Positions 20,598 through 46,000 of a stretch of DNA of 64,000 bases are shown here, piece after piece. The DNA is taken from positions 1-64,000 of IMG/VR virus record IMGVR_UViG_3300017917_002349; one strand, given 5' to 3'. Under the pieces are notes generated by a model, which was given only the letters and a program-made list of their open reading frames with translations, had not been told where the DNA came from and ran no database searches. The position numbers were made by a program, and so were the translations under genes. Numbering within the stretch: the first letter of the stretch is position 1; every line of letters begins with the position of its first letter. This stretch comes from a virus.

Positions 20598-23500
20598 ATG
20601 GCAGATTTTAAATTAAGTAGATTCAAGCACACCTGGAGAGGCACATGGGCAGCCTACGGACGTTATAATCCAGATGATGTAGTCAGTTTTGGTGGTAAAG
20701 TCTATAACTGTCTAATGACACATGTGGCTAATCCAGATTTTTACTACGATTTAGATTTCTATAACGGCGACATTCCTCCTGCACTAGACCCTAGATGGGA
20801 GTTAATGGCCGATGGTACTAGTTGGATGGGAGATTGGACTGCTGATACTTATTATCGTGTGGGAGATCAAGTGCGTTTGGGAGGTATCGTCTATCTATGC
20901 GTGGAAGCCCATACTTCAGGTAGCGACGAAACAGAATTCCCTAGTCAATATGCCAACTGGACCATACATCTAAGTTTATCAGAATGGAAAATTGATTGGC
21001 AAGTAGAAACATATTATAAGATTAACGATATCGTTCGCTACGGCGGAAAAATATATAGATGCAATACCAGTCACGAATCAGCAGGAGACATTAGTCAAGG
21101 ACTAGAATCTAATCAGGCTTTGTGGGACGTGGTTTCTATAGCAGAAGAGTGGAAAGGCAACTGGACCACTAGTTTTAGATATAAGGTAAATGACATAGTT
21201 CGTTACGGCGGACATTCCTACAAATGCGATGTTGCCCATACATCAGCCAGTGCTCTGGAAGCAGGACTTCCAGCAGATCAGGCCAAATGGTCTTTGGTCA
21301 ATCAAGGTATTGATTACAAAGGTACATGGACATCTACTACGATTTATAAAATAGGTGATGTGGTCAAGTATGGATCTTATCTATACAAAAATAACACATT
21401 CCACACATCTTCTCCTGTATTCAACAGCACATATTTTGAAATGTATCTTCCTGGACAGGAATATGATGTTGTCTGGGATACGAATACTGTTTATCAGGTA
21501 GGCGATGTTGTATCTTATGGTGGTAATCTTTATTTCAATACATTTTTACATTCAGGCCTAGTTCCCAGCACATCTACCTCAACTTGGACACTATTATTCC
21601 AAGGCTCAAAAATGCAGGGGCAATGGAGTAGCCTTGTAGATTATGAAATCGGAGATGTGGTAAGGCGCGGCGGAAATCTATATGCCTGTATTATAGATCA
21701 TATCGGGCAAGATCCAGACTTCTTAAATGATGGTAGTACAACGAATTCTACCTATTGGGATTTGATCATTCCTGGTATTAATTGGCGAGGAGTTTGGAGT
21801 GCAGGCACTGTTTACATGGCTGGAGATACTGTAGTTTGGGTATCTAGCTCTTATAGATGTAAAGATAAGCACGTTGCTGATACAGGAAATCGTCCAGACG
21901 ATGACGGTGAAATTGGTTCTACTCTAGAAGGAAGATATTGGGCTAAAATTACCGCCGGTAATAGAATCAACAGATTGAAAGAGGTAGGAGACATAAGAAC
22001 CTTTGGTGCCACAGAAGATGGTAGTACCATAGGCTATAAGGCCTTATCTATAGGAGAACAGGGTCGAGCACTGACTGTGAACAGCGGAGAAAACAGTTGG
22101 GAACTATTACAGAATACACAGCAGGCCTATTACGTAGCTGATTTTGGACAAGACATACCTACTGCAGGAACTTCGCCACAAAATCCTTGGAAAACTATCC
22201 GATATGCCTGCGAGCATGTCACTGGTTATGCTTCTATATTTGTGCGTACCGGGGACTATGAAGAGATACTACCAATACGTGTACCCGCATTTGTTGCGGT
22301 TATAGGAGACGAATTAAGGTCCACTACAGTCAAACCAGCAGATACAGTATTTGATGCTAGCTATATAACTATCATTTTAGCAGCCGCAGAAAGGCTGCGA
22401 GCACTACTAAGCAGGGTAGTTAGAGAACTCACTGTAGGACAGACAATTTTAGGATTTCCTGATGTAGAGCTCTACGGAGATATTCCTCAAGATTATTCGG
22501 GATCAATAGCTACCATAAATGAAGTGAATTCTCTAGAGTCTCTGATAGGTATATTTTCTAATAGAGTACAGACATTTTTAAACATAGGTATTTCGGGCAC
22601 AAATTCTATTACTATAGATGCTAATAAACTTGCGGCTCGAGCACAGATAACCAACAATTATGAATTCTTAAAAAACGAAATAATATTATTCTTAGAAGCT
22701 AATTATCTAGATTCTACACAGAATGCATTGCCCACTAGAATCGAACAAGACATAGAAAGAATCATTGATGCAGTCTCTTATGATTTAGTCTATCCAGGTA
22801 ATTATAAAACTGTAGAAGCTTCTACTTTTTTCATCAATGGTTCAACCTACGCTAGAAACAAAATCAGTAATATGTTCTTGATGAGAGACGGAAGCGGTCT
22901 AAGAAATATGACAGTATTAGGTTTAGAAGGTACCCTAGGAACAGCCAATATCTACGGAACCAGCAGACCTACCGCAGGTGCTTTTGTAAGCCTAGATCCG
23001 GGATATGGTCCTTCTGACACCACAGCCTGGGTCGGAACAAAATCGCCTTATGTGCAAAACGTCACAACATTTGGCACTGGCTGTGTAGGATTTAAGATTG
23101 ATGGCGATATACATGCAGGTGGTAATCAAACCATGGTCGCCAACGATTTCACACAAGTGATCAGCGATGGTATTGGAGTATGGTGTAACGGTACAGGAAA
23201 ATCAGAATGTGTTTCTGTGTTCACTTATTATAATCACATAGGATATCTATGCACCAACGGGGGCAAAATCAGAGGAACCAACGGTAATTGCTCTTATGGA
23301 AATTTTGGCGCTGTATCAGAAGGATATGACACTGCCGAAAGTCCTATCACAGCTTCTATAACCAATAGATATTATGAAGCTGATGTTTATCAAACTTTAG
23401 TGAATGATAATACCGGACTGCAAAAGTTATTCTTTTCTAATGCAGGTTCAAATTATACCACAGGATCTATGACCGTGGTAGGATCGGGTATAAATGCATC

Positions 23501-26057
23501 TGTGGTCATGGACGAATTCAGAGACGGTGCCGTCTATGAAGTTAGGATCGCAAATCCGGGAGATAGCTCTGCAGAAGGCGGATCAGGGTATACCTTTGTT
23601 ACTAACGCATCTCAAGGCGGAGATACAACTTATATTCAGCTAGCAGGCTCGGACGAAAATACTGCTAGTCAATATAGAGGTCTAAGACTGGTAATAGGTC
23701 GAGGCACAGGTACAGGACAGTACGGCTATATAGCAGAATACGATTTCACAGGCAAGTATGCTTACATAGGTAAAGAATCCAAACCAACAGTGACCGTTAC
23801 AAATGCAAGTTCTAGCGGTATGGTATTGACCATGTCAGACACTAGTCATCTTACCATCAATGATCCTATAATATTCGTAGGAACAAAGTTTGGTAATATA
23901 CAAGACAATACGATTTATTATGTTAGAACTATTCCTAGCAGCACACAGATCACGATCAGTGCTGCATCTGGACCGGGTGCTGTTTTTAACCTTATCAATG
24001 GTTCAGGAACCATGGTCCTACACTGTCTAGGATGGGAACACTTGGTTGAAGGTACTGCTATACAGAATACTCTAGACAGCTCAAGTAACTATTTCATAGA
24101 ACCAAGGATAACATTTAGCAGTCCGGGATTTAGTAGCTCAGCCGGAACATTGCCATCTAATAGACAATGGACTAGTATTGCCGGTAACTCGACCAGAATA
24201 GTTGCTGTGGCTCTCGATACAACAACCTTTGTGCATTCTGCAGACGGACAAAATTGGACCAGCGGAACTCTCCCGGCACAGGCTCTATGGACTAAGGTCA
24301 AATATGTAGGATCTTTATGGATGGCATTTGCCACAGGCGGACAGGCCGCAAGGAGCACAAACGGAATTACATGGTCGTCTATGACCATGAGTAGTACAGC
24401 AGAATGGAGAGACGTTGCCTACGGCAATGGAGTATATGTTGCAGTGGCCGCAGGCGGAACCAAGGCAGCATATTCATCAGACGGAATAACATGGACCGCA
24501 GCCACGCTTCCTGAGGGAGCTGATTGGAATTCTATAGAATACGGCAAAGGCAAATTTGTAGCCACAGCATTAAGCGATTCTTCTGTTTCAGGTGCTGCTA
24601 CTGCTTATTCATCAAACGGAACAACATGGACTGTAGGAACCCTAACACAGGGCAGTTATGCACTGGCCTACGGTAACAATAGATTTGTAGCATTATCGGG
24701 AGGATATGCAGGAGCGACAGAAGTTTCTGTGAGTTTTGATGGCATTACATGGACAGAATCAACCCTTCAATCTGCCGATTGGAGGAGTATCAGCTACGGT
24801 CAAGGATTGTTCATAGCCGTGGCCACAGGTTCTGCTACTGTAGCAACTTCGAAAGATGGCAAGACATGGAGCTATCAAAATATTTCTTCAGGGGGCCCAT
24901 GGTGTTCGATAGCATTTACTAATGTGGTCAAACCAGGAAAATTCATAGTCATTGGAGGCCTAACCACTAATTCTACCCAGACAAGAATTATCAGCACAGG
25001 TAGAACAGCTGAAGCTAGGGCAGTTATCGTTTCCGGAAGGATGAGTGCAATTAACCTATGGGAGCCAGGTAGCGGATATAGTTCAGCACCAGCTATGACC
25101 ATAACCGATCCAAATAACTCTTCAGAGGTATTTACCGTGGTCAGAGTTGGCAACGGTGCTATAGCTAATCCGACCATAATTAATGAAGGCGTGGGTTACG
25201 AAACATCTAGCACAAGAATAACCATAACTGGAGACGGATACAAAGATCAATATCACATAGGATCTTATATAGTGGTTACAGGAATGACTCGTATACCAGG
25301 ACCTGGTGATAACTTAAACATCGCTGGTATTAATGACTATACCTACAAGCTATTGACAGCTGAAATTCTAAATGGCACCGTGGGTAATTACACTGCAAGA
25401 ATAACTATTGCTAAAGATCTTGGAAGAGAAGAAAGTCCTGAACATGGAACAGCAATCACTATTAGACAGTTATATTCGCAGGTAAGATTAACGGGTCATG
25501 ATTTCTTAGACATTGGTCTAGGCAATCAAATAGAATGTAACTATCCAGACACACTAAATCCTGTAGGCACAGTTCTTGCACCAGAAGATGAAATAAGAGA
25601 AAGTAATGGTGGTCGTGTGTTCTACACTTCAACAGACCAAGACGGTAACTTCCGAGTTGGTGAACTTTTTGCTGTTGAACAAGCCACAGGCACTGTTACT
25701 CTAAACGCTCAATTTTTCCAACTAGAAGGTCTTGAAGAAATTAGACTAGGCGGATTTACTGTTGGAGGATCAGGAGTGGTCATTAGAGAATTCTCTACAG
25801 ATACTACATTTACTGCAGATTCAAATAACATTGTTCCTACTCAGAGAGCGATCAAAGCGTATTTGAATGCTAGAGTTTCCGGTGGCGGTGCAGATGCTAT
25901 AACTGGACAATTGACTGCAGGTATTGTACAGATTGGTCCTGATTCTTTGTCAACAACCACAGGCGACGAATTAATTTTTACAGCTAAAGTGAATTTCAGA
26001 GCTGGAGTTGACGGAACCTTGTTGGCTCTGAATTATTTTACAGCATCGGGGTCTTAA
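20598..26057 (+). CDS. Giant tail fibre/appendage protein (CBM5/12-like repeats, beta-helix region, Asp-box-like propeller repeats)
   Basis: 1819 aa. Repeats W...Y..GDVV.YGG..Y.C...HTS; SPYVQNVTTFG and NDFTQV; S.DG.TWT repeats; C-terminal STDQDGNFRVG. Confidence 0.75.
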   Translation: MADFKLSRFKHTWRGTWAAYGRYNPDDVVSFGGKVYNCLMTHVANPDFYYDLDFYNGDIPPALDPRWELMADGTSWMGDWTADTYYRVGDQVRLGGIVYLCVEAHTSGSDETEFPSQYANWTIHLSLSEWKIDWQVETYYKINDIVRYGGKIYRCNTSHESAGDISQGLESNQALWDVVSIAEEWKGNWTTSFRYKVNDIVRYGGHSYKCDVAHTSASALEAGLPADQAKWSLVNQGIDYKGTWTSTTIYKIGDVVKYGSYLYKNNTFHTSSPVFNSTYFEMYLPGQEYDVVWDTNTVYQVGDVVSYGGNLYFNTFLHSGLVPSTSTSTWTLLFQGSKMQGQWSSLVDYEIGDVVRRGGNLYACIIDHIGQDPDFLNDGSTTNSTYWDLIIPGINWRGVWSAGTVYMAGDTVVWVSSSYRCKDKHVADTGNRPDDDGEIGSTLEGRYWAKITAGNRINRLKEVGDIRTFGATEDGSTIGYKALSIGEQGRALTVNSGENSWELLQNTQQAYYVADFGQDIPTAGTSPQNPWKTIRYACEHVTGYASIFVRTGDYEEILPIRVPAFVAVIGDELRSTTVKPADTVFDASYITIILAAAERLRALLSRVVRELTVGQTILGFPDVELYGDIPQDYSGSIATINEVNSLESLIGIFSNRVQTFLNIGISGTNSITIDANKLAARAQITNNYEFLKNEIILFLEANYLDSTQNALPTRIEQDIERIIDAVSYDLVYPGNYKTVEASTFFINGSTYARNKISNMFLMRDGSGLRNMTVLGLEGTLGTANIYGTSRPTAGAFVSLDPGYGPSDTTAWVGTKSPYVQNVTTFGTGCVGFKIDGDIHAGGNQTMVANDFTQVISDGIGVWCNGTGKSECVSVFTYYNHIGYLCTNGGKIRGTNGNCSYGNFGAVSEGYDTAESPITASITNRYYEADVYQTLVNDNTGLQKLFFSNAGSNYTTGSMTVVGSGINASVVMDEFRDGAVYEVRIANPGDSSAEGGSGYTFVTNASQGGDTTYIQLAGSDENTASQYRGLRLVIGRGTGTGQYGYIAEYDFTGKYAYIGKESKPTVTVTNASSSGMVLTMSDTSHLTINDPIIFVGTKFGNIQDNTIYYVRTIPSSTQITISAASGPGAVFNLINGSGTMVLHCLGWEHLVEGTAIQNTLDSSSNYFIEPRITFSSPGFSSSAGTLPSNRQWTSIAGNSTRIVAVALDTTTFVHSADGQNWTSGTLPAQALWTKVKYVGSLWMAFATGGQAARSTNGITWSSMTMSSTAEWRDVAYGNGVYVAVAAGGTKAAYSSDGITWTAATLPEGADWNSIEYGKGKFVATALSDSSVSGAATAYSSNGTTWTVGTLTQGSYALAYGNNRFVALSGGYAGATEVSVSFDGITWTESTLQSADWRSISYGQGLFIAVATGSATVATSKDGKTWSYQNISSGGPWCSIAFTNVVKPGKFIVIGGLTTNSTQTRIISTGRTAEARAVIVSGRMSAINLWEPGSGYSSAPAMTITDPNNSSEVFTVVRVGNGAIANPTIINEGVGYETSSTRITITGDGYKDQYHIGSYIVVTGMTRIPGPGDNLNIAGINDYTYKLLTAEILNGTVGNYTARITIAKDLGREESPEHGTAITIRQLYSQVRLTGHDFLDIGLGNQIECNYPDTLNPVGTVLAPEDEIRESNGGRVFYTSTDQDGNFRVGELFAVEQATGTVTLNAQFFQLEGLEEIRLGGFTVGGSGVVIREFSTDTTFTADSNNIVPTQRAIKAYLNARVSGGGADAITGQLTAGIVQIGPDSLSTTTGDELIFTAKVNFRAGVDGTLLALNYFTASGS

Positions 26058-26114: not shown

Positions 26115-29100
26115 ATGGCTGAATTTAAATTAGGTAGAATAAAATTTGTATGGAAAAATGACTGGACAACCAGCACCACATACTATAAAGACGACATCAT
26201 CGCCTATGGCGGCAAAACATATCTTTGTGTAGTAGGACACACTGCGGCAGCGGATTTTTACACTGATCTCGATAATGTGCCTACTAAATGGAACCAATTC
26301 AGCGATGGCCAGGACTGGAAGGGTAACTGGGCAGCTACCACATTATACAAAGAAAACGATATTGTAAAATACGGCGGATATATCTATATCTGTAACAATG
26401 GTCATACCAGTTCTTCCACACTAGAAACCAATCAAGCAGATTGGGACCTATTAGCCGAAGGTTTTGATTGGAAGGGTGCATGGGCAACATCATATACCTA
26501 CAAGGTCAACGACCTTGTCAAGTATGGCGGTCTAGTATACCTCTGTAATACTGCTCACACATCTGCGGCCACAGCCGCACTAGGACTAGAACAAGATTCT
26601 ATTAAATGGGATATTTTCTCTAAAGGAGTTGACTGGAAAGGCACATGGGCTACATCAACAAGATATAAAGTAGGCGATCTTGTCAAGAACGGCGGCAATA
26701 CCTATGTATGTAATCAAGGTCATACTTCTGCAGCCACAGCCGCTTTGGGATTAGAAGCCGACCAATCTAAATGGGATTATTTTAATCAAGGTATCGACTA
26801 CAAAGGTACATGGGCAACTACTACTAGATACAAACACAATGATGTGGTCAAATATGGTGGAGGAACATGGATCTGTGTAACCCCACATACTTCTACTTCA
26901 AACTTTGTATCAGACAATGCATATTGGAATCAATTTGTTGAAGGTGTAGAATTTGAAGGAGATTGGTTATCTGGAACAACATACCAGCCCGGTGACATCG
27001 TGCGCTACGGTGGTAATAGTTACATTGCCAAGAATGTTCACGTTGCTGGATCCACACCCCCAGCAACACCTTTTGATTGGGATTTATTCACCACAGGATT
27101 TAGACTGCAAGGGGATTGGAGCTCAGTCACTACTTATAAAATTGGCGAAGTGGTTAGAAATCATGGCTTTACCTATGTAGCCACAGCAGACAGCACAAAT
27201 CAAAGACCTCCTAATGCTTCTTACTGGAGCAAATTAAATGAAGGTATTGACTGGGAAGGTGACTGGGTCAGCTCTCATGTTTATGTACTAGGCGATGCTG
27301 TAAAATACGGTCCAAATTCTTACATTTGTGTACAAGCGCATACTTCTAGCACAGGCGCAGATAGACCCGATAATGACACTATCGGTGCTTATTGGAATTT
27401 ATTGACCGCAGGCAATGAAGAAAGTGTGCTTACAACCACTGGTGATCTCGTATATTATTCAGGTGGCGGTCCTACAAGATTGCCCATCGGCGACGAAGGA
27501 CAGGTACTGGTAGTAGATTCTGGATTACCAACTTGGAAATATTTTGGTAAAGTAAAGAACGTTTGGTATGTGGCACCACATGGTGTTGATGAACCAGCAC
27601 CGACCTACGGATCTACAGTTGATCGTCCTTGGGCCAGTGTTAGATATGCCTGCGAACAAATTGAAAACGGTACAGAGTACCCAGAAGCAGCATACCTATT
27701 AAGACAAAACAGAACATTTATCCAACGAGAAATTTCTAAATGGGTCCAATATCAGATCTCCGTAGGTACAGGAATCTGGGCAGGATTCGTTAATGACAGT
27801 GCTGCTCTATGCGAAAGAGATATGGGACTTATAGTAGACGCTATTGTCTACGATTTGACACATACAGGTAATGTAAAATCTAGAACAGCAGCCTTGTCCT
27901 ATTTTGACAATGCAGGAGCACTTGAAACATTTATCGCAGACGAATACCAACAACTAGTGGCAGCAATCAACTATGGTGTTTCGTTGATCAATAGTGTATT
28001 ATCTAATACAGCACCTGCAGCAAATTATCAAGCATTAACCGGTGTAGCAGTTAATGATAGAATCAAGCAGATTATAGATGCTGGCTATACAGCAGAAGTC
28101 GGTTCTGCTGATATCTGTGAAGGACTCGCAGCAATAATCACAGACGCGGTTACTGCGCAGAGTATCACTAATCTTCCAATAGAAGATTTACCTAATTATA
28201 CAATTAATACCAAAACAGGTTTATATGAAGAAGTATTGCCTATCCGCGTTCCTTCATATACTGCTGTGGTTGGCGACGAACTACGTTCTAGCAGAATCAG
28301 TCCTGCAGGCAGCCTAATCGGTAACAACGACAAGGCCAAATCTGTTACAGTGTTGACCTATTTGAAATCTATCACCGACGAAATAGTCACAAATGTAGCG
28401 GTAACACCAACTACAGGCAATACAGAAACACAAGATACCACAAGTCAAAATGAGGGCAACGTGGGCAGTTCTACTGCGGTAACCAGTGTTGTTAATAACA
28501 CCGCTGAAATTAAAGATATTTTGACCAACGGTCTTGGTGCTGCAGACGCTTTTGTTATTCCGAATCCAACAAATTGGGGTTCGTCATTGACCAATACGGC
28601 CTATGCTTCAACAGGCAACAGCAGCGGAGCCACAACAACCTATGATTATGCTAGAGCTCAGATCCTAGCCAATACAGCATTCCTAAAAGCAGAAATCACT
28701 GCCTGGATCGCTGTGCAGGTCGCAGGCAATATTGCACCATTTACATCTAGCTTTGTTTATGATTCTGCAAAATGCGCCCGAGATGTTGGATATGTATTAG
28801 ATGCTATACGTTATGATATCACCTACGGCGGCAATACCCAGACAAGAATTGCCGCAGACGCATATTACAGTTACGGAGCAGCTACTTTTGGCACAGGTGA
28901 AAAACTACAGACCATAGCAGCCTATAATAGATTAAAGACCATAGTTGGACAAGTGGTCACCGAAGCAGCAGTTACAGTTTCTGCAGGCAATGCATTAACA
29001 CAGGATACCAGCGGTTCACCTGCTAACACCAGTGCTAAGAATTTCGCTGAAGAACGTGTTCAGCAGATTGTTGACACTATCACTGCCGACGGCACATTGC

Positions 29101-32100
29101 CAGCTTTGGTAGCTCCAGCAACTTCTTGGGTTGCCACAGCTTTGGTCACAGCTAGAACAGCACTAAATGATGCTAGAGCAGAAATTCAAACAGATGCTGT
29201 GCAATATGTCAAGAGAGAATTTCCAACTCTAAGCTTCAATGCTACAACCTGTTCAAGAGATGTGGGATATATCGTAGACGCTCTAGGATATGATCTCATG
29301 TTTGGTTCAAACTTTGCATCTGTCAAAGCAGGTATGGCCTATAGAAGAGGCACCACATCGGCATTGCTGGTAGTTGCTAATCAATTAGCCGCTACTCAGG
29401 CTATCATAGATTTTATTTCGGCCAAAGCCAAGAGAATCGCAGCCAGCGGTGCTAGTGTCTTATCCGGATTACTATGGGATGACATCATCAGTTATGTTAA
29501 TACAGGAACAAGACCAATTATCACAGGTAGAGTAACACCAACTACTGATCTTGATCAGATCAACGGTGGAAAGATACTAGAATTAAACCAAGACTTCCTA
29601 GCAGCAGAGGCTACAGCCTATGCAAATTACACATTTAAAACTACGGTTACTGCATCTACTGGAGGAGCCACTGATACATTTACCTGCTCATCACAAACTT
29701 GGATGGTAGCAGGCGACACTGTGAGATTCTCTGGTACAGTATTTGGAGGTGTTAATACCTCAACCACTTATTACATATTATCTAGTGGACTTACATCTAC
29801 TTCTTTCAAAGTATCATTGACCGCAGGCGGAACCGCAGTAGATCTGTCAACAACTTCAGGATCAATGATTGTTAGCTGGTACTATGATTCTGCAAGATGC
29901 CAGAACGATGTGAGAAATTATGTCAAAGCAATAGCAGCAGACCTAATGTACACAGGTAATTATAATTCAGTTTATGCAGCACGTTTCTACAGAAGCGCAT
30001 TAACTGGCTCTAAACTTGAAGATATGTTCTATGTCAAGAACGGCTGTGGAGTGAGAAATCACACATTGTTGGGTCTAGATGGTACATCGGACGGAAATAC
30101 CTCTGGTGCAGGAGACGCTGACGGACTAACAGCAGTAAACGAATATGGAACCAAGCGACCAATAGCTGGTGCATATGTTTCTCTAGATCCAGGTTTTGGA
30201 CCAAATGATTCTAGAGTATGGGTCACCAGTCGTTCTACCTATGTTCAAAACGTAACAACTTTCGGAACAGGTTGTACAGGACAAAAAATTGACGGTTCTC
30301 TACACAACGGAGGAGTTGATTCTATAGTTTCCAACGACTTTACTCAGGTGCTCAGCAACGGTATTGGTGCTTGGATCACTAACTTGGGCCGCGCAGAACT
30401 TGTTTCTGTGTTTACCTACTACAATCACATAGGTTACCTAGCTGAAAACGGCGGTAAGATCCGTGCTACCAACGGTAACAATTCTTATGGAGACTTTGGT
30501 TCTGTGTCAGAGGGTATTGACATTACTGAAACACCAGTAACAGGCCAAATCAATAATCGAGCCGAAGAAGCAGATGTTAGAAATGTACTAACTAACGGCA
30601 ACAACGTCTTAATCTATGAATTTGGCAATGCGGGTTCTAGCTATTCATCTGCTACAATTACCACTACCGGATCTGGTGCAGGAGTAACCACAGTAGCTAA
30701 CGAATTCCGTGATGGTGCAGTATTCCAGGTAAGACTAACTGATCCAGGCGACAGCTCGGGCACAGGCGGTACAGGATATGTCACAGCCAGCAACCTAGCA
30801 CAGACAGGTAATACCACACAGATCACTTTGGCCGCAGCAGATACCGCCACCAGTGCAACCTATGTTGGAATGAGTATCTATATTACTTCAGGCACAGGTG
30901 CTGGACAGTACGGATACATTAATACATATAATTCTGGTTCGAAGGTAGCTACGATTTATAAAGAATCAACTGGTACTGCAGGATGGGATCATGTTATTCC
31001 GGGTACTACAATCGCAGCATCATTAGATGTTACTTCGAATTATCAAATTACTCCTAGACTGACCTTTACAGATGCTCCATTCACCAAAACCATAGCCAAT
31101 ATCACAGCAGCGAATAATTGGACTGACGTGGTCTACGGTGACGGTTATGCGAGTTACACTGCGGTCAGTGCCACAGGCGGCTCGGGATCATTGGCTAGTT
31201 TTGATGTAAGCAGAAGGAACGGCACATATACAGTGTCTATTAATATTCCCGGAGCCCTTTATACTGTAGGCAACACATTAACAATATTAGGCACAGCGTT
31301 AGGAGGCACTACCCCAGCCAACGATTTGACTATTACAGTATCGACTGTTAACTCTCCTAGTGGTTCTATATCGTCAGTCACAGCTTCCGGAACAGCAATC
31401 ACTCCGAAGTATGTGGCCATTGCCAGCGGCACCACAGCAGGTGCCTACAGCAACGATGGTATAACTTGGACTGCGATGACTATGCCAACTGCTACCAGTG
31501 CTGGCGGCGGCGAACCAAACAACCAATGGTCAGCCATCGCATACGGTGTGGTCAGTAATGTCAGCTATTATGTAGCAGTTGCTAGAGCTACATCAGCTGC
31601 TGCCTACTCGAGAGATGGTATAAATTGGACAGCGGCTAACCTAGGTGAGGTCGCAGACTGGTGCGATATAGCCTATGGAAACGGTACATTCGTAGCCATC
31701 GCAGAAAGCGATTCTGCATCTGCATTCAGAGCAGTGTCTACTAACGGTGGTTCTACATGGAGTACAACCTCATTGGCCAACGGTGCTAAGGCGATCGCAT
31801 ATGGCGGGACTAGATTCGTGGAAGTTGAAGGTAACTTCTCAAACACTGTGGCATATTCTACCAGCGGTGTAGCATGGACAGTGACTACATTACCAAGTAA
31901 TAATGACTCTACAGAAAGTAACTGGGTCGACATTGCCTACGGTAATGGTAGATTTGTAGCGATTTCTGATAGTTCAGCAATGGCCGCATACAGTTTAGAT
32001 GGCATAACATGGACCAAAAGCAATCTTCCAGCTATCTACGAGTGGAGCTCGATCGGATATGCTCAGGGATTATTCTATGTGACCAGCCTAGGAGACTATG

Positions 32101-34469
32101 CAGCTAGTTCCCCAGATGGTGTAACTTGGACTCTAAGAGACGGTTCGACTGCTCAGCTCAATGTCACAGCCACAGCTAAAGATACTATTTCTGCTAGCTA
32201 TACAGAAACTGCAACATTGACTTCGGGCACCTGGACAGCAGTCATACATGATGGTACTAAGTTCTTAGCAGTAGGCTACAGCGGCGCAGCAGGTCTATAT
32301 GCGACCAGCACCACTGGCACTACATGGACTAATAGTACACTACCTACGGTCAGCGGAGCATTTGAATATACCGCAGTGGCCTATAACGGCAGCAATCAAT
32401 ATGTGGCATTGATAGGTGGCAGCGGAGGTACAAGGCACATAGCAACATCTTCCAATGCAACATCTTGGACTGGTACTGTTAATGCATTGACCGCTAACTC
32501 ATACTGGAAAGACATCGTCTATGGAGCAGGTCGTTATGTGGCTATCAGAGGCGATTCTGCAGCGGTCAACTATTCTACTAACGGAACATCTTGGACCAAC
32601 GCCACAGTCACATCAGGTTCTGGAGAAATGAGTGGTATCGCTTATGGTCAGATCAGCGGCGTTGATTATTTCGTAACAGTGGCAGGTTATTCTACAGGTA
32701 GTCAAGTATCATCATATTCTACCAACGGCGGCGTTACATGGACATCCGGCAGCACATTACCTAGCTCAGATTTCTGGGCAGATATAGCATTTGGAGGCGG
32801 AAGATTTGTAGCTGTTGCAGGCGGAACAACTAATGCAACAACCAAAGCAGCCTACAGTACCAACGGTACTACATGGACTGCGGCTACGATGCCAGGTGCA
32901 GCAGCCAGGTGGAATAGAATCGTGTATGGAGGTGGCGCATTCACAGCCTTTGCTTATAACAGCAATAGAACAGCCTACTCTACTAATGGAGTAACTTGGG
33001 TAGAAGGTCCTGCACAAGCAGCAACAAGGAACTGGGCCGAAGCTGCCTACGGAGGAACAAAACTTGTTTCTCTAGCCACAGGCACTACCACAGCTTCATA
33101 TGCTGATTTTGTATTGAATACTAATTATCTAACAACTTCTAGCACTACAGATCTAAGGGTAAATGACAGAGTACGATTCACAGGTGCTACCATAGGCGGA
33201 ATCGTACCAGATGTATACTATTACATAACCAGTATCTACAGTGCTACCCAATTTACTGTTTCGACTACCAGGGGTGGTTCAAATACAGTATTAAGCACTG
33301 GCAGCGGCACAGCACCGTTCAAGTCCAGCAGAGACTTTGTAGCGGCAGCACTGGGCAATTATCAGGGAACCCCAAATTGGGTGATTCTAGCTGCTAATAG
33401 TGCAAGTGTTCAAAATATTAGAACAGGTGCCAAAACCAGAGCCAGAGCGTATGTTGTGGACGGTGCTATTTCCGAAATCTGGATACACGAACCAGGTTCA
33501 GGATATGTTAGCGCACCTACTATGACCATCACTGATCCTAATAACACAGGAGCAGATGCTACAGTCACAGTGAGATTAGGCAATGGTGCTATAGCCCAAC
33601 CTATGTTTACTAATAGAGGTACTAGTTATACCGCAGCCGCAGCTGAAATTACCGGCAATGGTTATGCTGATAATTATCAAACCAGCGCATTCGTGGCATT
33701 TGCTAATCTAACAGGAATTCCTAAAGCGGGTTCAAACGTACAGATTGCAGGCATCGATGATGTGTGGTACAGACTGGTTAATGTAACAAATCTATTACCT
33801 AATTCGGACGGTACTTATAATTGTACACTACAGATCAGTCCTGCTATCGGTGCAGCAGAAGCCCCTGAACATCAGGCAGCTGTAACTATCCGTAGACGCT
33901 ACTCGCAGGTTCGACTCACAGGACACGATCTATTAGATATCGGTACCGGAGATTTTATCAACAGTAACTATCCAGGATTACCGCTGACAGATCCAATTCC
34001 TGCACAGGAATACAAGCAAAGCAACGGTGGTCGTGTGTTCTATACCTCAACTGACCAAGACGGTAACTTCCGAGTTGGTGGACTGTTCAACGTTGAACAG
34101 AGCACAGGTGTTGCAACATTGAATGCTGACGCATTTAATATCGCAGGTTTGAACGAACTTTCGTTGGGATCTGTGGCGCTGGGCGGTGCGGGTGCTACGA
34201 TTTCTGAGTTCTCAACTGATCCGTTCTTTACTCAGGATTCTGATTCTGTAGTACCTACGCAGAGAGCTATCAAAGCATATATTACTAGCCAAATTGGTGG
34301 CGGTGGTTCTAGCTTGAACGTAAATACCCTCACTGCAGGCGTGGTCTATATAGCTGGTCAAACGATAGCTACAACTACAAATGTCCAGATTAACATAAAT
34401 ACAAAGGTAAACTTCAAAGGCGGTATTGCTGGCGATGCACTTGTATTAAACTACTTTTTACTAAATTGA
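26115..34469 (+). CDS. Giant tail fibre/appendage protein, paralog of 20598, with four phycobiliprotein-like helical repeats
   Basis: 2784 aa with the same architecture as 20598, plus C-x-[RN]-D repeats with Cys at 27810, 28773, 29250 and 29898; TAAATA at 26080. Confidence 0.75.
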   Translation: MAEFKLGRIKFVWKNDWTTSTTYYKDDIIAYGGKTYLCVVGHTAAADFYTDLDNVPTKWNQFSDGQDWKGNWAATTLYKENDIVKYGGYIYICNNGHTSSSTLETNQADWDLLAEGFDWKGAWATSYTYKVNDLVKYGGLVYLCNTAHTSAATAALGLEQDSIKWDIFSKGVDWKGTWATSTRYKVGDLVKNGGNTYVCNQGHTSAATAALGLEADQSKWDYFNQGIDYKGTWATTTRYKHNDVVKYGGGTWICVTPHTSTSNFVSDNAYWNQFVEGVEFEGDWLSGTTYQPGDIVRYGGNSYIAKNVHVAGSTPPATPFDWDLFTTGFRLQGDWSSVTTYKIGEVVRNHGFTYVATADSTNQRPPNASYWSKLNEGIDWEGDWVSSHVYVLGDAVKYGPNSYICVQAHTSSTGADRPDNDTIGAYWNLLTAGNEESVLTTTGDLVYYSGGGPTRLPIGDEGQVLVVDSGLPTWKYFGKVKNVWYVAPHGVDEPAPTYGSTVDRPWASVRYACEQIENGTEYPEAAYLLRQNRTFIQREISKWVQYQISVGTGIWAGFVNDSAALCERDMGLIVDAIVYDLTHTGNVKSRTAALSYFDNAGALETFIADEYQQLVAAINYGVSLINSVLSNTAPAANYQALTGVAVNDRIKQIIDAGYTAEVGSADICEGLAAIITDAVTAQSITNLPIEDLPNYTINTKTGLYEEVLPIRVPSYTAVVGDELRSSRISPAGSLIGNNDKAKSVTVLTYLKSITDEIVTNVAVTPTTGNTETQDTTSQNEGNVGSSTAVTSVVNNTAEIKDILTNGLGAADAFVIPNPTNWGSSLTNTAYASTGNSSGATTTYDYARAQILANTAFLKAEITAWIAVQVAGNIAPFTSSFVYDSAKCARDVGYVLDAIRYDITYGGNTQTRIAADAYYSYGAATFGTGEKLQTIAAYNRLKTIVGQVVTEAAVTVSAGNALTQDTSGSPANTSAKNFAEERVQQIVDTITADGTLPALVAPATSWVATALVTARTALNDARAEIQTDAVQYVKREFPTLSFNATTCSRDVGYIVDALGYDLMFGSNFASVKAGMAYRRGTTSALLVVANQLAATQAIIDFISAKAKRIAASGASVLSGLLWDDIISYVNTGTRPIITGRVTPTTDLDQINGGKILELNQDFLAAEATAYANYTFKTTVTASTGGATDTFTCSSQTWMVAGDTVRFSGTVFGGVNTSTTYYILSSGLTSTSFKVSLTAGGTAVDLSTTSGSMIVSWYYDSARCQNDVRNYVKAIAADLMYTGNYNSVYAARFYRSALTGSKLEDMFYVKNGCGVRNHTLLGLDGTSDGNTSGAGDADGLTAVNEYGTKRPIAGAYVSLDPGFGPNDSRVWVTSRSTYVQNVTTFGTGCTGQKIDGSLHNGGVDSIVSNDFTQVLSNGIGAWITNLGRAELVSVFTYYNHIGYLAENGGKIRATNGNNSYGDFGSVSEGIDITETPVTGQINNRAEEADVRNVLTNGNNVLIYEFGNAGSSYSSATITTTGSGAGVTTVANEFRDGAVFQVRLTDPGDSSGTGGTGYVTASNLAQTGNTTQITLAAADTATSATYVGMSIYITSGTGAGQYGYINTYNSGSKVATIYKESTGTAGWDHVIPGTTIAASLDVTSNYQITPRLTFTDAPFTKTIANITAANNWTDVVYGDGYASYTAVSATGGSGSLASFDVSRRNGTYTVSINIPGALYTVGNTLTILGTALGGTTPANDLTITVSTVNSPSGSISSVTASGTAITPKYVAIASGTTAGAYSNDGITWTAMTMPTATSAGGGEPNNQWSAIAYGVVSNVSYYVAVARATSAAAYSRDGINWTAANLGEVADWCDIAYGNGTFVAIAESDSASAFRAVSTNGGSTWSTTSLANGAKAIAYGGTRFVEVEGNFSNTVAYSTSGVAWTVTTLPSNNDSTESNWVDIAYGNGRFVAISDSSAMAAYSLDGITWTKSNLPAIYEWSSIGYAQGLFYVTSLGDYAASSPDGVTWTLRDGSTAQLNVTATAKDTISASYTETATLTSGTWTAVIHDGTKFLAVGYSGAAGLYATSTTGTTWTNSTLPTVSGAFEYTAVAYNGSNQYVALIGGSGGTRHIATSSNATSWTGTVNALTANSYWKDIVYGAGRYVAIRGDSAAVNYSTNGTSWTNATVTSGSGEMSGIAYGQISGVDYFVTVAGYSTGSQVSSYSTNGGVTWTSGSTLPSSDFWADIAFGGGRFVAVAGGTTNATTKAAYSTNGTTWTAATMPGAAARWNRIVYGGGAFTAFAYNSNRTAYSTNGVTWVEGPAQAATRNWAEAAYGGTKLVSLATGTTTASYADFVLNTNYLTTSSTTDLRVNDRVRFTGATIGGIVPDVYYYITSIYSATQFTVSTTRGGSNTVLSTGSGTAPFKSSRDFVAAALGNYQGTPNWVILAANSASVQNIRTGAKTRARAYVVDGAISEIWIHEPGSGYVSAPTMTITDPNNTGADATVTVRLGNGAIAQPMFTNRGTSYTAAAAEITGNGYADNYQTSAFVAFANLTGIPKAGSNVQIAGIDDVWYRLVNVTNLLPNSDGTYNCTLQISPAIGAAEAPEHQAAVTIRRRYSQVRLTGHDLLDIGTGDFINSNYPGLPLTDPIPAQEYKQSNGGRVFYTSTDQDGNFRVGGLFNVEQSTGVATLNADAFNIAGLNELSLGSVALGGAGATISEFSTDPFFTQDSDSVVPTQRAIKAYITSQIGGGGSSLNVNTLTAGVVYIAGQTIATTTNVQININTKVNFKGGIAGDALVLNYFLLN

Positions 34470-39130: not shown

Positions 39131-40066
39131 ATGACAAGATCAAAAGCGTTTTTTATAAACGGCGGTGCAGGCAGAATGATCACTTCTATTCCTGCTTTTG
39201 AAAGATACGAAAAAGAATCTGAGGACAAAGATTTTATCATCGTCTGTGAGGGCGGCACAGATGTATTCAAAGGACATCCTACATTAGATGCTAGGACCTA
39301 CGATATCTGGCACAAGGGCCTATTCCAAGACAAGCTCAAGGATAGAGATATTATCACTACAGAGCCTTACAGGATCTGGGAATATTATAACCAAAAATGT
39401 TCTATTGGCCAGGCCTTTGACATTCAAATCAATGAAAAAGGCGTAAGAGATCTAGATAAGCCCATACTTCACCTTAGCAAAGACGAACTGTTGAACGGTC
39501 GTTATGTTGTGGGTGAGGTCAAGAAAAAACTAAAAAAAGACAAGCTCATAGTATTTCAACCTTTTGGCAGAGGTATCGAATACATAGACGAAACTCTAGT
39601 CGATAAAACAGGTCGAAGTTTCGAACTTAAAGATGTGAAACAGATCATTAAAAAATTACAGCAGAACGATTTCGCTGTGATAATGATGAGCGAATTCAAA
39701 GTCGATCTGAGCGATGCCAAATTAAAAGACGAAGTAGCCACCCCAGAAAATACCAACATTAGGATTTGGGCTGCAATTATCAAATATGCCGATCACTTTC
39801 TAGGCTGCGATTCTGTAGGACAGCATCTGGCATATTCCGTAGGCACTAAATCCACGGTGGTCACTGGCGCCACATATCCTATCAACGTCACTTATCCTAA
39901 CAGCGAAGGTGTAGAAGTCCTTGACATGGGAGAAATACATAGAGAATACAGCCCTATCAGAATCACTGTAGATGAAAGAGTAGATAGAACCAATGAAAAA
40001 TTAATGGCTATGAATGATGATATCACAACACTAATAGTCAATCATGTACTAGGAAAAAAAGAATGA
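39131..40066 (+). CDS. GT-B glycosyltransferase, family 9 (heptosyltransferase)-like
   Basis: GGAGR.I.SIP at the N-terminus; IVFQP; AAIIKYADHFLGCDSVGQHLAYSVG..STVV.G.T matches the GT9 D-S-x-x-x-H-L-A motif. Confidence 0.7.
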   Translation: MTRSKAFFINGGAGRMITSIPAFERYEKESEDKDFIIVCEGGTDVFKGHPTLDARTYDIWHKGLFQDKLKDRDIITTEPYRIWEYYNQKCSIGQAFDIQINEKGVRDLDKPILHLSKDELLNGRYVVGEVKKKLKKDKLIVFQPFGRGIEYIDETLVDKTGRSFELKDVKQIIKKLQQNDFAVIMMSEFKVDLSDAKLKDEVATPENTNIRIWAAIIKYADHFLGCDSVGQHLAYSVGTKSTVVTGATYPINVTYPNSEGVEVLDMGEIHREYSPIRITVDERVDRTNEKLMAMNDDITTLIVNHVLGKKE

Positions 40067-41898
40067 CAGTTACTTCAATCACAAAAGAGACAGTAAAGAA
40101 ACCAATTTGGATAGCAGGCATCGCTCGGGGACATAATGCTGGAATTTGTCTGCTCAAAGATGGCGAAATAGTTTTTAGCATCGAAGAAGAGAGATTAACC
40201 AGACAAAAATATGATGGAGGTCCTTTGGCTTCTATGGTTAAGATTCTAGAATACACTGATAAACTAGATTATTTGATCATTGCTCATACACAACCTTTAT
40301 ATGAAACCGCCGGTAAGATAGATTATACCGGCGATGATATGTACACAGGCATGGCCAGAAAATTAGGACTAATTGACAGAAAAGTCAAGAATCTACACAA
40401 GCATCCTCAGGTAATTGATATGAGCTACATGCATCATAAACTACATACGGCCTGTGCATTTTATCGCAGTGGATTTAAAGAAGCAGTTTCGTTGATCGTA
40501 GATGGTGCAGGAACTTTCTTTCCTATGAGTTATAATGACAGCCAAGTTTGGTTCTGGGAAACAGAATCTATTGTAGACTGCCAATATCCTGCAGAATTTA
40601 AAACACTTTACAAGCATTATGGTACTAAAGATCCGATACCTTGTGCTTTTATTCCTCGATTTAGTTCTGATTCTCTAGGAGAGACTGGAGATACACACGA
40701 AGCTTGGTTAACTGATCGATCAGGAATCGTTAAAGTCTACGAAGGTGTGACCGAATATTGCGGATTTAGTGCCATCGAAGCAGGCAAGACCATGGGTCTA
40801 TTCCCCTATGGTAAAGCTAATCCTAATATTCCACCTTTGTTTGACCCAACTGGAAAAACACCCTTATCTAATAGGAATTTTATTATTCCTAAATATCCTA
40901 TGAGCAGCATTGTCAACATGAATCTTTTCGAGGCTGTAGAACAAGATCCAGAAAATGTAGACGAAGATCTAACTCTCATGGACAATAGACGAGACATGGC
41001 CTATGCTGTTCAGACGCAGACACAAGAACAAGTAGTTCGTTTGATCAAGTATGCTGTAGAAAAAAGTGGTAGGAAACAGGTCACTATCAGCGGAGGCTAC
41101 GGTCTCAACTGCGTGGCCAACTATTATTATCTAGAACAACTTAAAGATTCCGGAATTGAAATTTATGTAGAGCCTATCTCAAACGATGCCGGTACTGCGA
41201 TGGGTGCAGCATTAATGTTCTGGCACGGTATGTACAACGACGAAACTATTCGTCCATACGGTACGTTGTATCTAGGACCCGAATATCATTATACAGACAA
41301 AGATATTTCAGAAAAGGTCGCTGGTGTACAAGGAGCCACAGTTGTAGACGCTACACATAAAGATGTGGTCAAGCTTCTACGTGAAAAAAATATCGTTACT
41401 ATCTTCCAAGGACGTTCAGAAAACGGCCCTCGAGCACTAGGCAATCGTTCAGTATTATTTGATCCAACATTTCCGGACGGTAAAGATTTTGTCAACACTG
41501 TTAAACGTCGCGAGTATTTCCGTCCTTTTGCAGGCAGCATTTTACAAGATGATGTACATGATTGGTTTGATCTGAGAGGTATGAAAGATAGTCCTTTTAT
41601 GATGTATGCAGTAAATTGTCAACCAGGCATCGAAGAAAAGATTCCCAGCATCATTCACGAAGATCATACCTGTAGGATACAGACTGTGACCAGAGATCAA
41701 AATCCTCACTATTATGATTTGATCAAGACCTTCAAAGAGGAAACAGGAATTCCTATTTTGTTCAATACCAGCTTTAATCTAGGCGGAGAACCCCTAGTAG
41801 AAACCCTAGATGATGCAATTTGGACTCTACAGAATTCAGATATTATGTATCTGTATTTGCCAGAATACGGTAAACTGATTTACGTGCCCAACGAATAA
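40063..41898 (+). CDS. O-carbamoyltransferase (NodU/CmcH/TobZ family)
   Basis: EEERLTRQK, HH..H...AF, VDGAG, GKTMGL, GGYGLNCVAN, DAGTAMGAA, GPRALGNRS, KRRE.FRPFA, RIQTV, NTSFN..GEP. Confidence 0.93.
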   Translation: MTVTSITKETVKKPIWIAGIARGHNAGICLLKDGEIVFSIEEERLTRQKYDGGPLASMVKILEYTDKLDYLIIAHTQPLYETAGKIDYTGDDMYTGMARKLGLIDRKVKNLHKHPQVIDMSYMHHKLHTACAFYRSGFKEAVSLIVDGAGTFFPMSYNDSQVWFWETESIVDCQYPAEFKTLYKHYGTKDPIPCAFIPRFSSDSLGETGDTHEAWLTDRSGIVKVYEGVTEYCGFSAIEAGKTMGLFPYGKANPNIPPLFDPTGKTPLSNRNFIIPKYPMSSIVNMNLFEAVEQDPENVDEDLTLMDNRRDMAYAVQTQTQEQVVRLIKYAVEKSGRKQVTISGGYGLNCVANYYYLEQLKDSGIEIYVEPISNDAGTAMGAALMFWHGMYNDETIRPYGTLYLGPEYHYTDKDISEKVAGVQGATVVDATHKDVVKLLREKNIVTIFQGRSENGPRALGNRSVLFDPTFPDGKDFVNTVKRREYFRPFAGSILQDDVHDWFDLRGMKDSPFMMYAVNCQPGIEEKIPSIIHEDHTCRIQTVTRDQNPHYYDLIKTFKEETGIPILFNTSFNLGGEPLVETLDDAIWTLQNSDIMYLYLPEYGKLIYVPNE

Positions 41899-43069: not shown

Positions 43070-46000
43070 ATGGCAAAGAAACAGTTAAAAAAATATGTAT
43101 TTGAACCTGGGATCAGCAAAGATGATAATCTGTATCCTCATGCAGTGGCATTGTTAAGTGCCAACAAGGCATTTTTGCAACAACAGGTAGTTGCCTTCAT
43201 TAATAATCAGATCACTAACAATATTGGAGTATATGCAGGGTATACATATGCGTCTCAAAAATGTATAAGAGACGTAGGATACTTTATTGATGCAGTTTTA
43301 CATGATCTTCGATATGGAGGTAATGTCAAATGTAGACAGGTAGCAGATTATTTTTGGATAGACGGTGAACCTCAGATCAGAGGAGATGTCAGTCCTGAGA
43401 TCACAGGACAGCAATATCTAAGAGATGTAATCAACAACTATATTTTTACCAATACCACCGTTTCTCCGTCCTACGGTAATACTGTCGCACAGGTAAAAAT
43501 AATCGGACAAAATGCAGAATCAGGAGCTTCATCAAGGAATACAACTCTTTGGAGTGTGTTTAGCAACGTAATCCAGAACGGATTGCCTGCCATGCCCAGC
43601 AAGGTCGCAGGCGTAAGTTCTATCAGAGTAATCGGTAAGTACGATCCAAGCGAAATCTTATTAATCACAGATACTAATAACGGTGAAATTTTATATAGTT
43701 TTGCTGATAATAATAACACACTGACCTGCGAATATAAACAGGGACGCAGCAGCGGTAATGGTGAATTGTTAACAGATGTTGATTTTCCTCGCTGGTGGCA
43801 CACTTCGGATACTATAACTACTATAAGTCTTTCTGCAGATACTTCTTTGTTGTCAGCAGCGGCAGATCTTCAAATCTTTGTAGAGGATCCTAATCAACAG
43901 ATTCGTCCTTGGGAATTTGGTACGGATGCTATTGAACGTATGCGTGTGGCAGCACCGCAGGCCATGTTGGACGCTGATTTTGAATACGGATTGCAGCCAA
44001 CTAAATGGCAAGCACTAGGATTGATACGTATGTATCCTTCGGTATATGAAGTACCAGGTACAGATCTAACTATTTCAGCGATCACCACTGATGCATCATC
44101 TAACACAGGTTTTTTTGGTTCTTCATTAATCACAGTTACCACTACTGGTACACATGGATTTTCAGCAGGACAACCGATCACTGTCAAAGGACTATTGTCT
44201 ACGGTCAGCGGGTTTGCTCGTGCAGAAGGATCATTCTTAATTTACAGCACACCTAGTGCAGTGTCATTTACATACTATGCATCTGCCAAAGTAGGAACTG
44301 CCAACGGTGACAGTCTATATACGAGTTTTGCGCAGATAAGACAAGCTGGATTTTACACCGGTGCTTCAGTAGGAGCACCTACATTTTCTTTATACAGCAA
44401 TGGTACTAATTTAACAATAACTTCTAAATTTATCACAGCTTCGGGATCAACAACCATTGCCTTTGATGGAACAGCGCCGACATCTGGATCACCGGTTACA
44501 GGTTCTCCTGTATTTGTACAAGGAACTGCGATATCCGGAGTGATAGGCAGCAGCACGGTCAGCGCCAAAATCAAGACAGCGACTCTTACCACAGACACTA
44601 GTGTAGAAGTTGTATCCGCCACGGGTATACAGCAACAAATGGCATTGAGCTCCGGAGGCGGAACCGCCCTGTTTATTAACTCATTGGCAGGAACCACTTT
44701 AAATCTTTCAGGCGCTATTGGTTCTACATATGTTGGAGCCAACGGTTCTAATTCAGGAGTCACAGGAACAAACATCCCGCCCATAGGTGTAGGCGCACAT
44801 TTTGCAGTTTCTAGATCAGCAGGTGTATATTCAGTGACCGATCCAGGAGATTCGACATCTAATGGACAAAATTATGCTGTGGGCGATAATTTGCTCATAG
44901 CAGGTACTGATCTAGGCGGTACATCTCCTCAAAATGATATTACAGTAGTAGTCACAGGTATTGATTCTGGTGGAACTATTACAAACTTTAGTTTTTCTGG
45001 GTCAGCAATCAGCGGAGGAGCTTCTTACAGTCTGGTATTACCTAATAGTACTACGGGGTCGGGTTCAGGTGCATATCTAGCAGTAGATAGAGCCGGCGGC
45101 ACTGGAGTTTACACAAATATCGTAGTCTCTGGCGGAAGCCTTTATTCTCCAGGAGACTATGTAACTTGGTCAGGAGCAGATCTAGGAGGTTCAAGTCCAG
45201 CCAATGATATAACCATATTAGTTCAAGGAGTAACTTCGGGAAGTATAGTTGACTATGTAGTCCAAGGAACTCCTGTAGGTGCCACAGGTAACGGTTCATA
45301 TCCTGCTGCCAATGCAACAAATATACCTAATTCGGGGGCCGGTGCTATATTCACTGTGACCAGAACAGACGGTAACTATACCGCTGTAGCTACTAATCCC
45401 GGCAGCGGATATGTGGTAGGTAATGGTATTAGAATTCTTGGCACAGCACTAAATGGTGCAACTCCTCTTAATGATTGTATATTAACTGTAAGTGGAGCGG
45501 CCGGCGGGTCTCTGACTGTAACAGCAGTAGGGGTACCGTATGCAGGAGATAGTATCAGTGTTTATCCCACAATGACTATCAGCGAACCAATTACTAGTTC
45601 TCTAGCAGCAAATACCACTTTAAATGTTGGTGCAATTCCTACAGTGCAGATAGATTTTTCAAGTAACCATGGATTGATACCTGGTACTACTATCCTTACA
45701 CAAATAACATCTAATCCGGCTCCGGCATATGCAGCCACACCAAGAACACTGACTTCTTCTCTTACATGGGTAGGAGTAGCATTCGTTGGTGGAACCTTTG
45801 TAGCAGTGGCCAACGGATCGGCTGTGACTAATAGATCTATCGACGGTCAAAATTGGACCGCAGGTGGTACTATTCCAGGCAGTACATCATGGACCAGTAT
45901 TGCAGCTGGCGCCATAGGAGCTACAAATTATTTTGTGGCCGTAGCATCCGGGGGTACGGTTGCAGCCTATTCAACCGATGGAGGTCAAAACTGGACTGCG

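Follow-up and report, generated by a model that had tools for sequence, protein, structure and literature searches.

The window analysed here is the whole 64,000-nucleotide stretch formed by positions 1 to 64,000 of the IMG/VR virus record IMGVR_UViG_3300017917_002349, a record of 162 kb that CheckV estimates to be 46% complete. A single open frame in this window encodes a protein of 2784 amino acids (aa), P0001, which carries four copies of an all-helical unit whose Cys/Arg/Asp triad is the bilin triad of phycobiliproteins. P0001 matches the PHROG tail-fibre families phrog_9851 (E 5e-193), phrog_4527 and phrog_5342, and genes for further virion proteins, among them portal, major head and sheath, are found in this window too; both observations suggest by homology that P0001 is a tail-fibre protein. 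The only Pfam signal in P0001 comes from a run of about seven CBM_5_12-like repeats at its N-terminus, matched in seven stretches. Directly upstream lies the gene of a shorter fibre paralogue, P0002 (1819 aa; 20598-26057). When the two proteins are compared, the units are seen to be inserted where a beta-helix-like region begins, between strands that have been kept (RYACE ... LPIRVP..AV.GDELRS ... GSG.RN.T.LG), with the first unit, R1, just after the RYACE strand that opens this region, a place where P0002 has no such insert. The number of units differs between the paralogues.

A profile made from 131 units of 80 IMG/VR loci was run over the whole 162-kb record and matched at eight places, all of them within the window (Table 1). 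In P0001 units R1 to R3 are whole and R4 is split by a beta-rich insert, the motifs starting at aa 564, 885, 1044 and 1260. A preliminary description of this locus had reported four motifs in the 2784-aa protein, and all were found with their Cys codons exactly where they had been placed, as the cores of true repeats. It had also described the fourth repeat as split by an inserted beta domain, and the two half matches, about 64 aa apart, do form one unit. The real extent of the repeats (27636-30068) is slightly wider than the span it gave (27684-29995). To its list we add a fragment resembling helix G and one further unit copy in each of two neighbouring virion genes, those of P0002 and of a 2237-aa virion structural protein (phrog_5838; gene 43070-49783). 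The full triad is present in R1, R2, R3 and the unit at 43106, while R4 reads C-Q-N-D and the P0002 unit I-E-Q-D.

Table 1. Units and associated features of the fibre region, in window coordinates. E-values of units are those of the unit profile; pLDDT, predicted local distance difference test score; pTM, predicted template modelling score.
Feature	Position	Strand	Evidence
Degenerate single unit (RIEQD; no Cys, no Arg) in P0002	22506-22847	+	Profile E 3.1e-15
P0001 tail-fibre gene, 2784 aa	26115-34469	+	Single open frame; PHROG tail-fibre families
Array of about seven CBM_5_12-like repeats (end approximate)	26115-27440	+	Pfam PF02839, E 9.6e-38
Unit R1 (LCERD; Cys codon 27810)	27636-28049	+	Profile E 2.6e-35
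Fragment resembling helix G, the last helix of the unit (profile positions 121-168)	28305-28448	+	Profile E 5.7e-5, weak
Unit R2 (KCARD; Cys codon 28773), with a linker of about 30 aa rich in Ser, Thr and Gly	28452-29018	+	Profile E 1.9e-49; AlphaFold pLDDT 85.6, pTM 0.80
Unit R3 (TCSRD; Cys codon 29250), FGSNF subtype	29013-29495	+	Profile E 1.3e-46; AlphaFold pLDDT 89.6
Unit R4, N-terminal half, helices A-B	29427-29648	+	Profile positions 6-81, E 1.6e-4
Putative beta-rich insert of about 64 aa in the B-E loop of R4	29649-29840	+	Gap between half matches; read from the sequence
Unit R4, C-terminal half (RCQND; Cys codon 29898; Asn for Arg)	29841-30068	+	Profile positions 68-134, E 2.2e-14
Intact unit (KCIRD), N-terminus of the 2237-aa virion structural protein	43106-43495	+	Profile E 1.9e-27

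The phage is an uncultured Rak2-like jumbo myovirus with a genome of about 350 kb. Its head protein is 66-69% identical to those of jumbo myoviruses of Proteobacteria with genomes of 349-469 kb, the cultured relatives being Serratia phage BF, Yersinia phage fHe-Yen9-04, Vibrio phage 2.275.O, Xanthomonas phage XaC1 and Sinorhizobium phage Phosso, and 83-87% identical to those of uncultured IMG/VR genomes of 345-400 kb. No psbA gene was found in the record or in four large relatives, and a host outside the cyanobacteria is likely.

The unit is 110-150 aa long and has the consensus KCxRDvGYivDAxxYDlxYGGN. Among 1.84 billion representative proteins, 1639 clusters at 50% identity match its profile, with anything from 1 to 39 units in a protein; giant proteins homologous to P0001 carry 10-21 copies each, and close homologues are encoded on ENA/JGI contigs of 346-372 kb. 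Two subtypes of unit, ending in YGGN(L/S/T) or in FGSNF, partly alternate along the giant proteins (P0033, P0041, P0063 and other homologues), and R2 and R3 of the window are one of each. A profile search of proteins of 88-280 aa found no stand-alone small unit proteins; its six matches, all on contigs shorter than 2 kb, probably stem from giant genes that are incomplete there. In a tblastn search of 50,697 phage genomes, the only cultured phages with a region like the units are T4-like cyanophages (ACG-2014e/i/j, S-CAM3/4, S-H9-1, S-H38, P-RSM6, S-WAM2 and DSL-LC03; 25-33% identity), whose annotation calls the matched genes short tail fibre, tail protein or virion structural protein; the cultured jumbo relatives gave no match to the unit region in that search. 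A degenerate motif scan of GTDB species genomes found six contigs with genuine unit arrays, none of them cyanobacterial, in assemblies assigned to Crocinitomicaceae (two), Chitinophagales, Yoonia, Acidimicrobiaceae and a gammaproteobacterium, which spreads them over Bacteroidota, Alpha- and Gammaproteobacteria and Actinobacteria. The six are probably of phage origin and were binned with bacteria, and they give a weak hint of the host. A single-unit query against genome contigs gave no match, and a search of the ESM Atlas gave no usable one.

The sequence of the unit points to phycobiliproteins. When aa 501-1362 of P0001 were compared by phmmer with all PDB sequences there were only four matches, all of them phycocyanin alpha (E 0.08-0.16), and the phycocyanin motif, which the preliminary description had quoted correctly, is aligned from PDB chains such as 1f99_A to AKCARDVGYVLDAIRYDITYGG. 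With the 131-unit profile the best PDB match improved to E 4.6e-4, and 33 of the 34 matches were phycocyanin alpha, aligned over residues 32-104. The phycobiliprotein family PF00502, which has a gathering cut-off of 22.2 bits, scores above it on units of two homologues, P0033 (30.4 bits over 106 positions, 33-138) and P0041 (27.3 bits), and a precomputed PF00502 match is present in eight homologues. A comparison by hhalign of the unit profile with a CpcA/CpcB profile built from metagenome loci gave a probability of 89.8% (P 1.8e-6), with CxRD laid on CxRD and the alignment reaching helix G. Both HMMER and hhalign place the CxRD of the unit on Cys84-Arg86-Asp87.

Structures of R2 and R3, which are 20% identical to each other, were predicted with AlphaFold2 without templates (Table 1). 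The R2 model has helices at residues 34-44, 46-62, 76-96, 100-107 and 122-140 with a short hairpin between, and the R3 model has helices at residues 5-23, 41-52, 54-68, 76-96, 100-110, 114-145 and 148-159. In Foldseek searches of the PDB with either model, every top row was a phycobiliprotein except 8u0f, which is titled 'Bacterial fluorescent protein'; the E-values were weak (0.03-0.7) and the TM-scores about 0.5. VIA-align, which is independent of Foldseek and was run against 48,161 representative chains, matched R2 to allophycocyanins (Z 10.2 and 10.1), phycoerythrin (9.9), photocobilin and ApcE (both 9.4), and re-alignment of R2 with the matches of Foldseek gave Z of up to 11.1. C-phycocyanin beta was aligned with a root-mean-square deviation (rmsd) of 2.5 Å over 107 residues, residues 32-160 of the model lying on 34-148 of the chain, so that Cys79 of the model would fall at about residue 81-82, the attachment site; the range of the allophycocyanin alignment puts it there too. 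For R3 the top ten of the 48,161 chains were all bilin-binding globins (Z 12.7, 12.5 for ApcE and 12.4 for photocobilin, down to 10.4), ahead of globins that bind no bilin (RsbR, globin-coupled sensors and pXO2-61), for which Z was at most 9.6.

Both models are thus predicted to contain a helical core like that of globins (A, B, E, F', G, H), and the HMMER and hhalign alignments together with the ranges of the structural alignments place the Cys of CxRD at about the bilin-attachment position on helix E. No confident X-Y hairpin, the element used to form alpha-beta heterodimers, was seen in the R2 model, in which the first 30 residues are low-confidence coil, and helix 5-23 of the R3 model could not be assigned to that hairpin; the low-rmsd structural alignments begin at about residue 33 of the phycobiliprotein. 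In phycobiliproteins the pairing of Asp13 with Arg93 serves the alpha-beta heterodimer, and the column of the invariant Arg93 holds Asp in the unit. The preliminary description had proposed globin-fold, phycobiliprotein-like domains with a Cys at the place of bilin attachment, to be checked by AlphaFold and Foldseek on the repeats. That proposal is borne out by the PDB profile search, by PF00502 on two homologues, by hhalign and by the two models, for which the predicted fold is globin-like and phycobiliproteins are nearest. We regard it as very probable that the unit has the fold and the ancestry of a phycobiliprotein or another bilin-binding globin.

Whether the units have kept a binding site can be approached through the triad, which was counted over about 500 unique units collected by the profile with no requirement for the motif. 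Units are only 20-30% identical overall, and in them Cys is conserved in 85%, Arg in 86%, Asp in 94%, the Asp of YD in 99% and the Asn of GGN in 88%. Where the Cys is replaced, in 15% of units, the substitute is Thr, Phe, Val, Trp, Tyr or Leu. Both Cys and Arg are present in 404 units and both are missing from 49, while 26 have lost Cys and kept Arg and 20 have lost only Arg, so that the two losses are coupled (odds ratio 38, with kinship ignored). The DA..YD..GGN scaffold persists where Cys and Arg have been lost. A triad that co-varies in this manner implies a site.

The possible source of a bilin was sought among related phages. One related contig (G005) carries overlapping genes for a heme oxygenase (hemO) and for a bilin reductase that depends on ferredoxin (FDBR), and the reductase is 50% identical to the hemO-adjacent reductase of Pelagibacter phage Mosig. 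Judged by this sequence match, the pair is a cassette of the hemO-pcyX type, which is known from phages whose hosts are not photosynthetic (PMC11480375). On 380 IMG/VR contigs there are relatives of the reductase, at 65-85% identity, and hemO is directly upstream of the reductase in 80 of 80 loci from these contigs. A block of Hsp70, Hsp20 and ClpS genes precedes hemO-FDBR in 66-77 of the 80 loci (including L210, which is positions 1-2678 of G005, L255, L256, L286 and the rest of L211-L289). Since hemO-FDBR ends this block, the bilin genes lie among genes for chaperones and a proteolysis adaptor and not among structural genes.

Five of the 40 largest reductase contigs hold units, including all three that are 94-100% complete. 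These three genomes, which were found via the reductase, have 9, 45 and 12 unit matches and a capsid protein 83-86% identical to that of this phage. Their hemO-FDBR pair is 135-170 kb from the capsid gene and the nearest unit gene is about 20 kb away at best, so that an adjacency of hemO-FDBR to a unit gene, the arrangement seen with bilin biosynthesis-associated globins (BBAGs), does not occur in them. No homologue of the Hsp70-Hsp20-ClpS block was found in our record, and the record, which is less than half complete, leaves the region of the cassette outside its coverage. Of about 18 Hsp20-anchored loci (L424-L454) with enough DNA, only 4 have the cassette after ClpS and some 14 have no hemO-FDBR; since many Hsp20-ClpS contigs are without it, the cassette resembles an accessory element inserted at one fixed place. 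The large Hsp20 contigs that have no cassette either have no structural module or belong to a distant group whose capsid protein is 38% identical, and from a 98%-complete genome of such a distant group both cassette and units are missing.

Taken together, these results can be explained by divergent phycobiliprotein-type modules, bilin included, in the fibre, an explanation that we put forward tentatively. The modules, spliced into loops where the beta-helix region of the 2784-aa protein begins, would each fold independently, as beads that lengthen the fibre, and each would retain a working ligand pocket, of which the conserved and co-varying triad may be the mark. The most likely ligand would be a linear tetrapyrrole on the Cys, bound without the help of a lyase, as BBAG globins and ApcE bind theirs; it could come from a hemO-pcyX-type cassette such as that of the complete relatives, or from biliverdin of the host. 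That a bilin is really bound by the units is a real possibility, though one that falls short of probable. The more specific version, in which the fibres and the second virion protein carry a CxRD-bound bilin, attached without a lyase and made by the phage's own hemO-pcyX-type cassette, is rather unlikely.

Several results weigh against this explanation. We know of no virion protein that carries a bilin. The 162-kb record has no match to PF00502, PF05996, PF01126 or PF06206, that is, no FDBR, heme oxygenase or CpeT lyase. A CpeT-type lyase (PF06206) is likewise missing from contigs G000, G001, G002, G004 and G005 and from the three complete relatives, and a CpeS-type lyase (PF09367) was not found in the three complete relatives; E/F-type lyases were not searched. 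The search for heme oxygenase, reductase and lyase genes that the preliminary description had suggested was therefore rewarded only in part, by the hemO-FDBR pair of the complete relatives. Units were present in five of five contigs of this phage's group that had been chosen by capsid gene alone, and since they look universal in the group, the presence of unit and cassette together in complete genomes is expected anyway and is not specific. The cultured pelagiphage Mosig has the cassette and no units. An FDBR gene was found in only one of 78 related fragments holding units or the capsid gene. We dropped this last count as evidence against a link between unit and cassette, because the cassette is so far from the capsid gene in complete genomes and our record is without the flanking block, which makes the count uninformative.

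Other results of this kind concern the relationship to phycobiliproteins. PF00502 has no match on P0001 at E<=1, nor in the window or the record. The residues that are most invariant in the unit, the Asp of YD and the Asn of GGN, are not phycobiliprotein features. When the 8-residue motif was removed from the profiles, neither the N-terminal part (P 0.13) nor the C-terminal part (P 0.056) matched significantly, mismatched pairs giving 0.09-0.17, although the best alignments kept the same register; the sequence evidence is therefore carried by the motif and the residues close to it. The resemblance of the flanks in the preliminary description stands insofar as the alignments cover helices A and B upstream and helix G downstream, but the flanks alone are not significant. 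The case for homology thus leans on the predicted structures, and VIA-align cautions that a Z below about 13 can be reached by common helical arrangements alone. For this reason the argument is one of agreement between the sequence, two models and two aligners, and not of any single score.

It is possible, if somewhat doubtful, that the unit descended from a phycobiliprotein-type globin and is free of chromophore, acting as a rigid helical spacer that sets the length of the fibre, with C-x-R-D kept for folding or for contacts between units. A copy number that is free to vary from 1 to 39 is typical of structural fibre modules, and the insertion of units in beta-helix loops, in unequal numbers in the two paralogues, would suit such a spacer, as would the fact that the most invariant residues are peculiar to the unit and do not correspond to bilin contacts. 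The substitutes for Cys are those expected at a buried helix position, and a spacer would need neither the lyase that was not found nor the bilin genes that the record does not hold. However, it leaves unexplained why Cys, Arg and Asp are retained in 85-94% of units so divergent, and why Cys and Arg are lost jointly while the scaffold motif is kept; moreover, an unpaired conserved Cys is unusual for a protein of the virion surface.

A pocket for some other ligand, such as a tetrapyrrole of the host surface or another small molecule by which the host is recognised, is unlikely in our view, and so is a metal-related or redox function of the Cys. The co-varying triad would fit any such site, the receptor-binding fibre also bears carbohydrate-binding repeats, and units occur in many records where bilin genes are not seen; yet no result points to a specific ligand, phycobiliproteins and BBAGs have precisely this triad for their bilin (PMC10151467), and internal fibre modules repeated up to 39 times would be odd as a receptor site. 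Convergence, in which an unrelated helical bundle shares a short motif with phycocyanin alpha by chance, would account for the loss of the sequence signal with the motif, the weak Foldseek E-values and the restriction of the PDB sequence matches to phycocyanin alpha, but it is very improbable given that models of two dissimilar units are both nearest to bilin-binding globins, ahead of other globins, that a homologue matches PF00502 above the cut-off over 106 profile positions, and that both the helix on which the motif lies and its place there have their structural equivalents in phycobiliproteins.

With divergent phycobiliprotein-type modules as the favoured explanation, the unit can be set beside known systems. 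It shares with phycobiliproteins (the alpha and beta subunits of phycocyanin, allophycocyanin and phycoerythrin) the globin-like core of helices A, B, E, F' and G, with H in R3, and a CxRD on helix E with Cys at about residue 81-84, and these proteins are its best match in both sequence and structure. It differs from them in the absence of a confident X-Y hairpin from R2, in having Asp at phycobiliprotein position 93, where they have Arg, and in its own invariant YD and GGN. Phycobiliproteins are also free subunits of 160 aa, whereas the units are tandem or inserted modules of giant predicted virion proteins and occur in phages that probably do not infect cyanobacteria; a lyase for them was not found, and they are only candidates for bilin binding.

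ApcE, the core-membrane linker of the phycobilisome, has a loop inserted between helices B and E, as R4 has, and ApcE attaches its bilin autocatalytically. Its bilin-binding domain, which R3 matches with an rmsd of 2.5 Å over 111 residues, is like the unit a phycobiliprotein-type domain inside a very large multidomain protein; unlike the units, it is a single domain with a different Cys, in a membrane-anchoring antenna component of cyanobacteria. Photocobilin and photoglobin domains (PDB 8j2y and 8j2w) have a globin-type bilin pocket, a feature that the units may share (Z 12.4 and 10.4 for R3, 9.4 for R2), but they belong to actinobacterial photoreceptor enzymes with one domain in each protein and are not parts of virions. 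The fibre modules of the cyanophages are found in phages whose hosts, being cyanobacteria, supply bilins and lyases, whereas this phage is a Rak2-like jumbo phage. BBAGs of heterotrophic bacteria, some of which carry CXRD and bind bilins without lyases (Rockwell, Martin and Lagarias 2023, PMC10151467), resemble the unit, as far as they can be likened by description, in being phycobiliprotein relatives outside photosynthesis that are linked to PcyA-type reductases. A related CXQD motif has been reported in the same work (PMC10151467); R4 reads CQND. BBAGs differ in being small, stand-alone and adjacent to the reductase gene, while no stand-alone form of the unit was found and the cassette lies far from the structural genes. 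The known bilin-binding globins are the phycobiliproteins, the BBAGs, the photoglobins or photocobilins, and the domain of ApcE; not one of them forms part of a virion or is repeated in tandem within giant proteins. A literature search whose coverage left out most subscription journals turned up no account of phycobiliprotein-like domains in the virion proteins of phages.

Pairs of heme oxygenase and bilin reductase genes occur in phages of non-photosynthetic hosts with no known acceptor protein for their product, and in 2024 phytochromes or BBAGs were still only possible acceptors of phage bilins (PMC11480375). What we describe is a very abundant family of predicted virion proteins composed of phycobiliprotein-type domains in which the bilin triad is retained, in a group whose complete genomes carry the cassette; if the explanation is true, the family may provide an acceptor for these unexplained bilin genes. 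If a bilin is bound, the virions would be pigmented or fluorescent, perhaps responsive to light, and would be the first phage particles known to bear a chromophore. Light-dependent adsorption has been reported for some cyanophages (10.1101/167650, PMC7112961), and in cyanophage relatives that carry the module it would become a candidate sensor for such adsorption. If no bilin is bound, giant fibres would still have taken over the fold of an antenna protein as one of their building blocks.

Other features of the fibre genes and their surroundings were noted. At about 31300-33000 of the window (P0001 aa ~1730-2300) a long series of repeats, each about 50 aa in length, bears the signatures W..I.YG.G.FVA and S.DG..W and resembles a BNR/Asp-box beta-propeller; Pfam has no match there at E<=1. 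The type of beta-rich insert seen in R4 (GD.V.F.G...GG......YY, then a Ser/Thr-rich strand) also occurs near 32900-33100 and in 20598-26057, and this small domain, which has no Pfam match, recurs near the C-terminus of both fibre paralogues. A Nol-like O-carbamoyltransferase gene (40063-41898; phrog_1601, E 7e-164) is located just downstream of the fibre genes. Beside the portal gene, 4240-7743 encodes a 1167-aa protein with an endolysin/chitinase-like domain at aa 691-968 (phrog_181, E 1e-34), which is possibly a virion-associated lysin.

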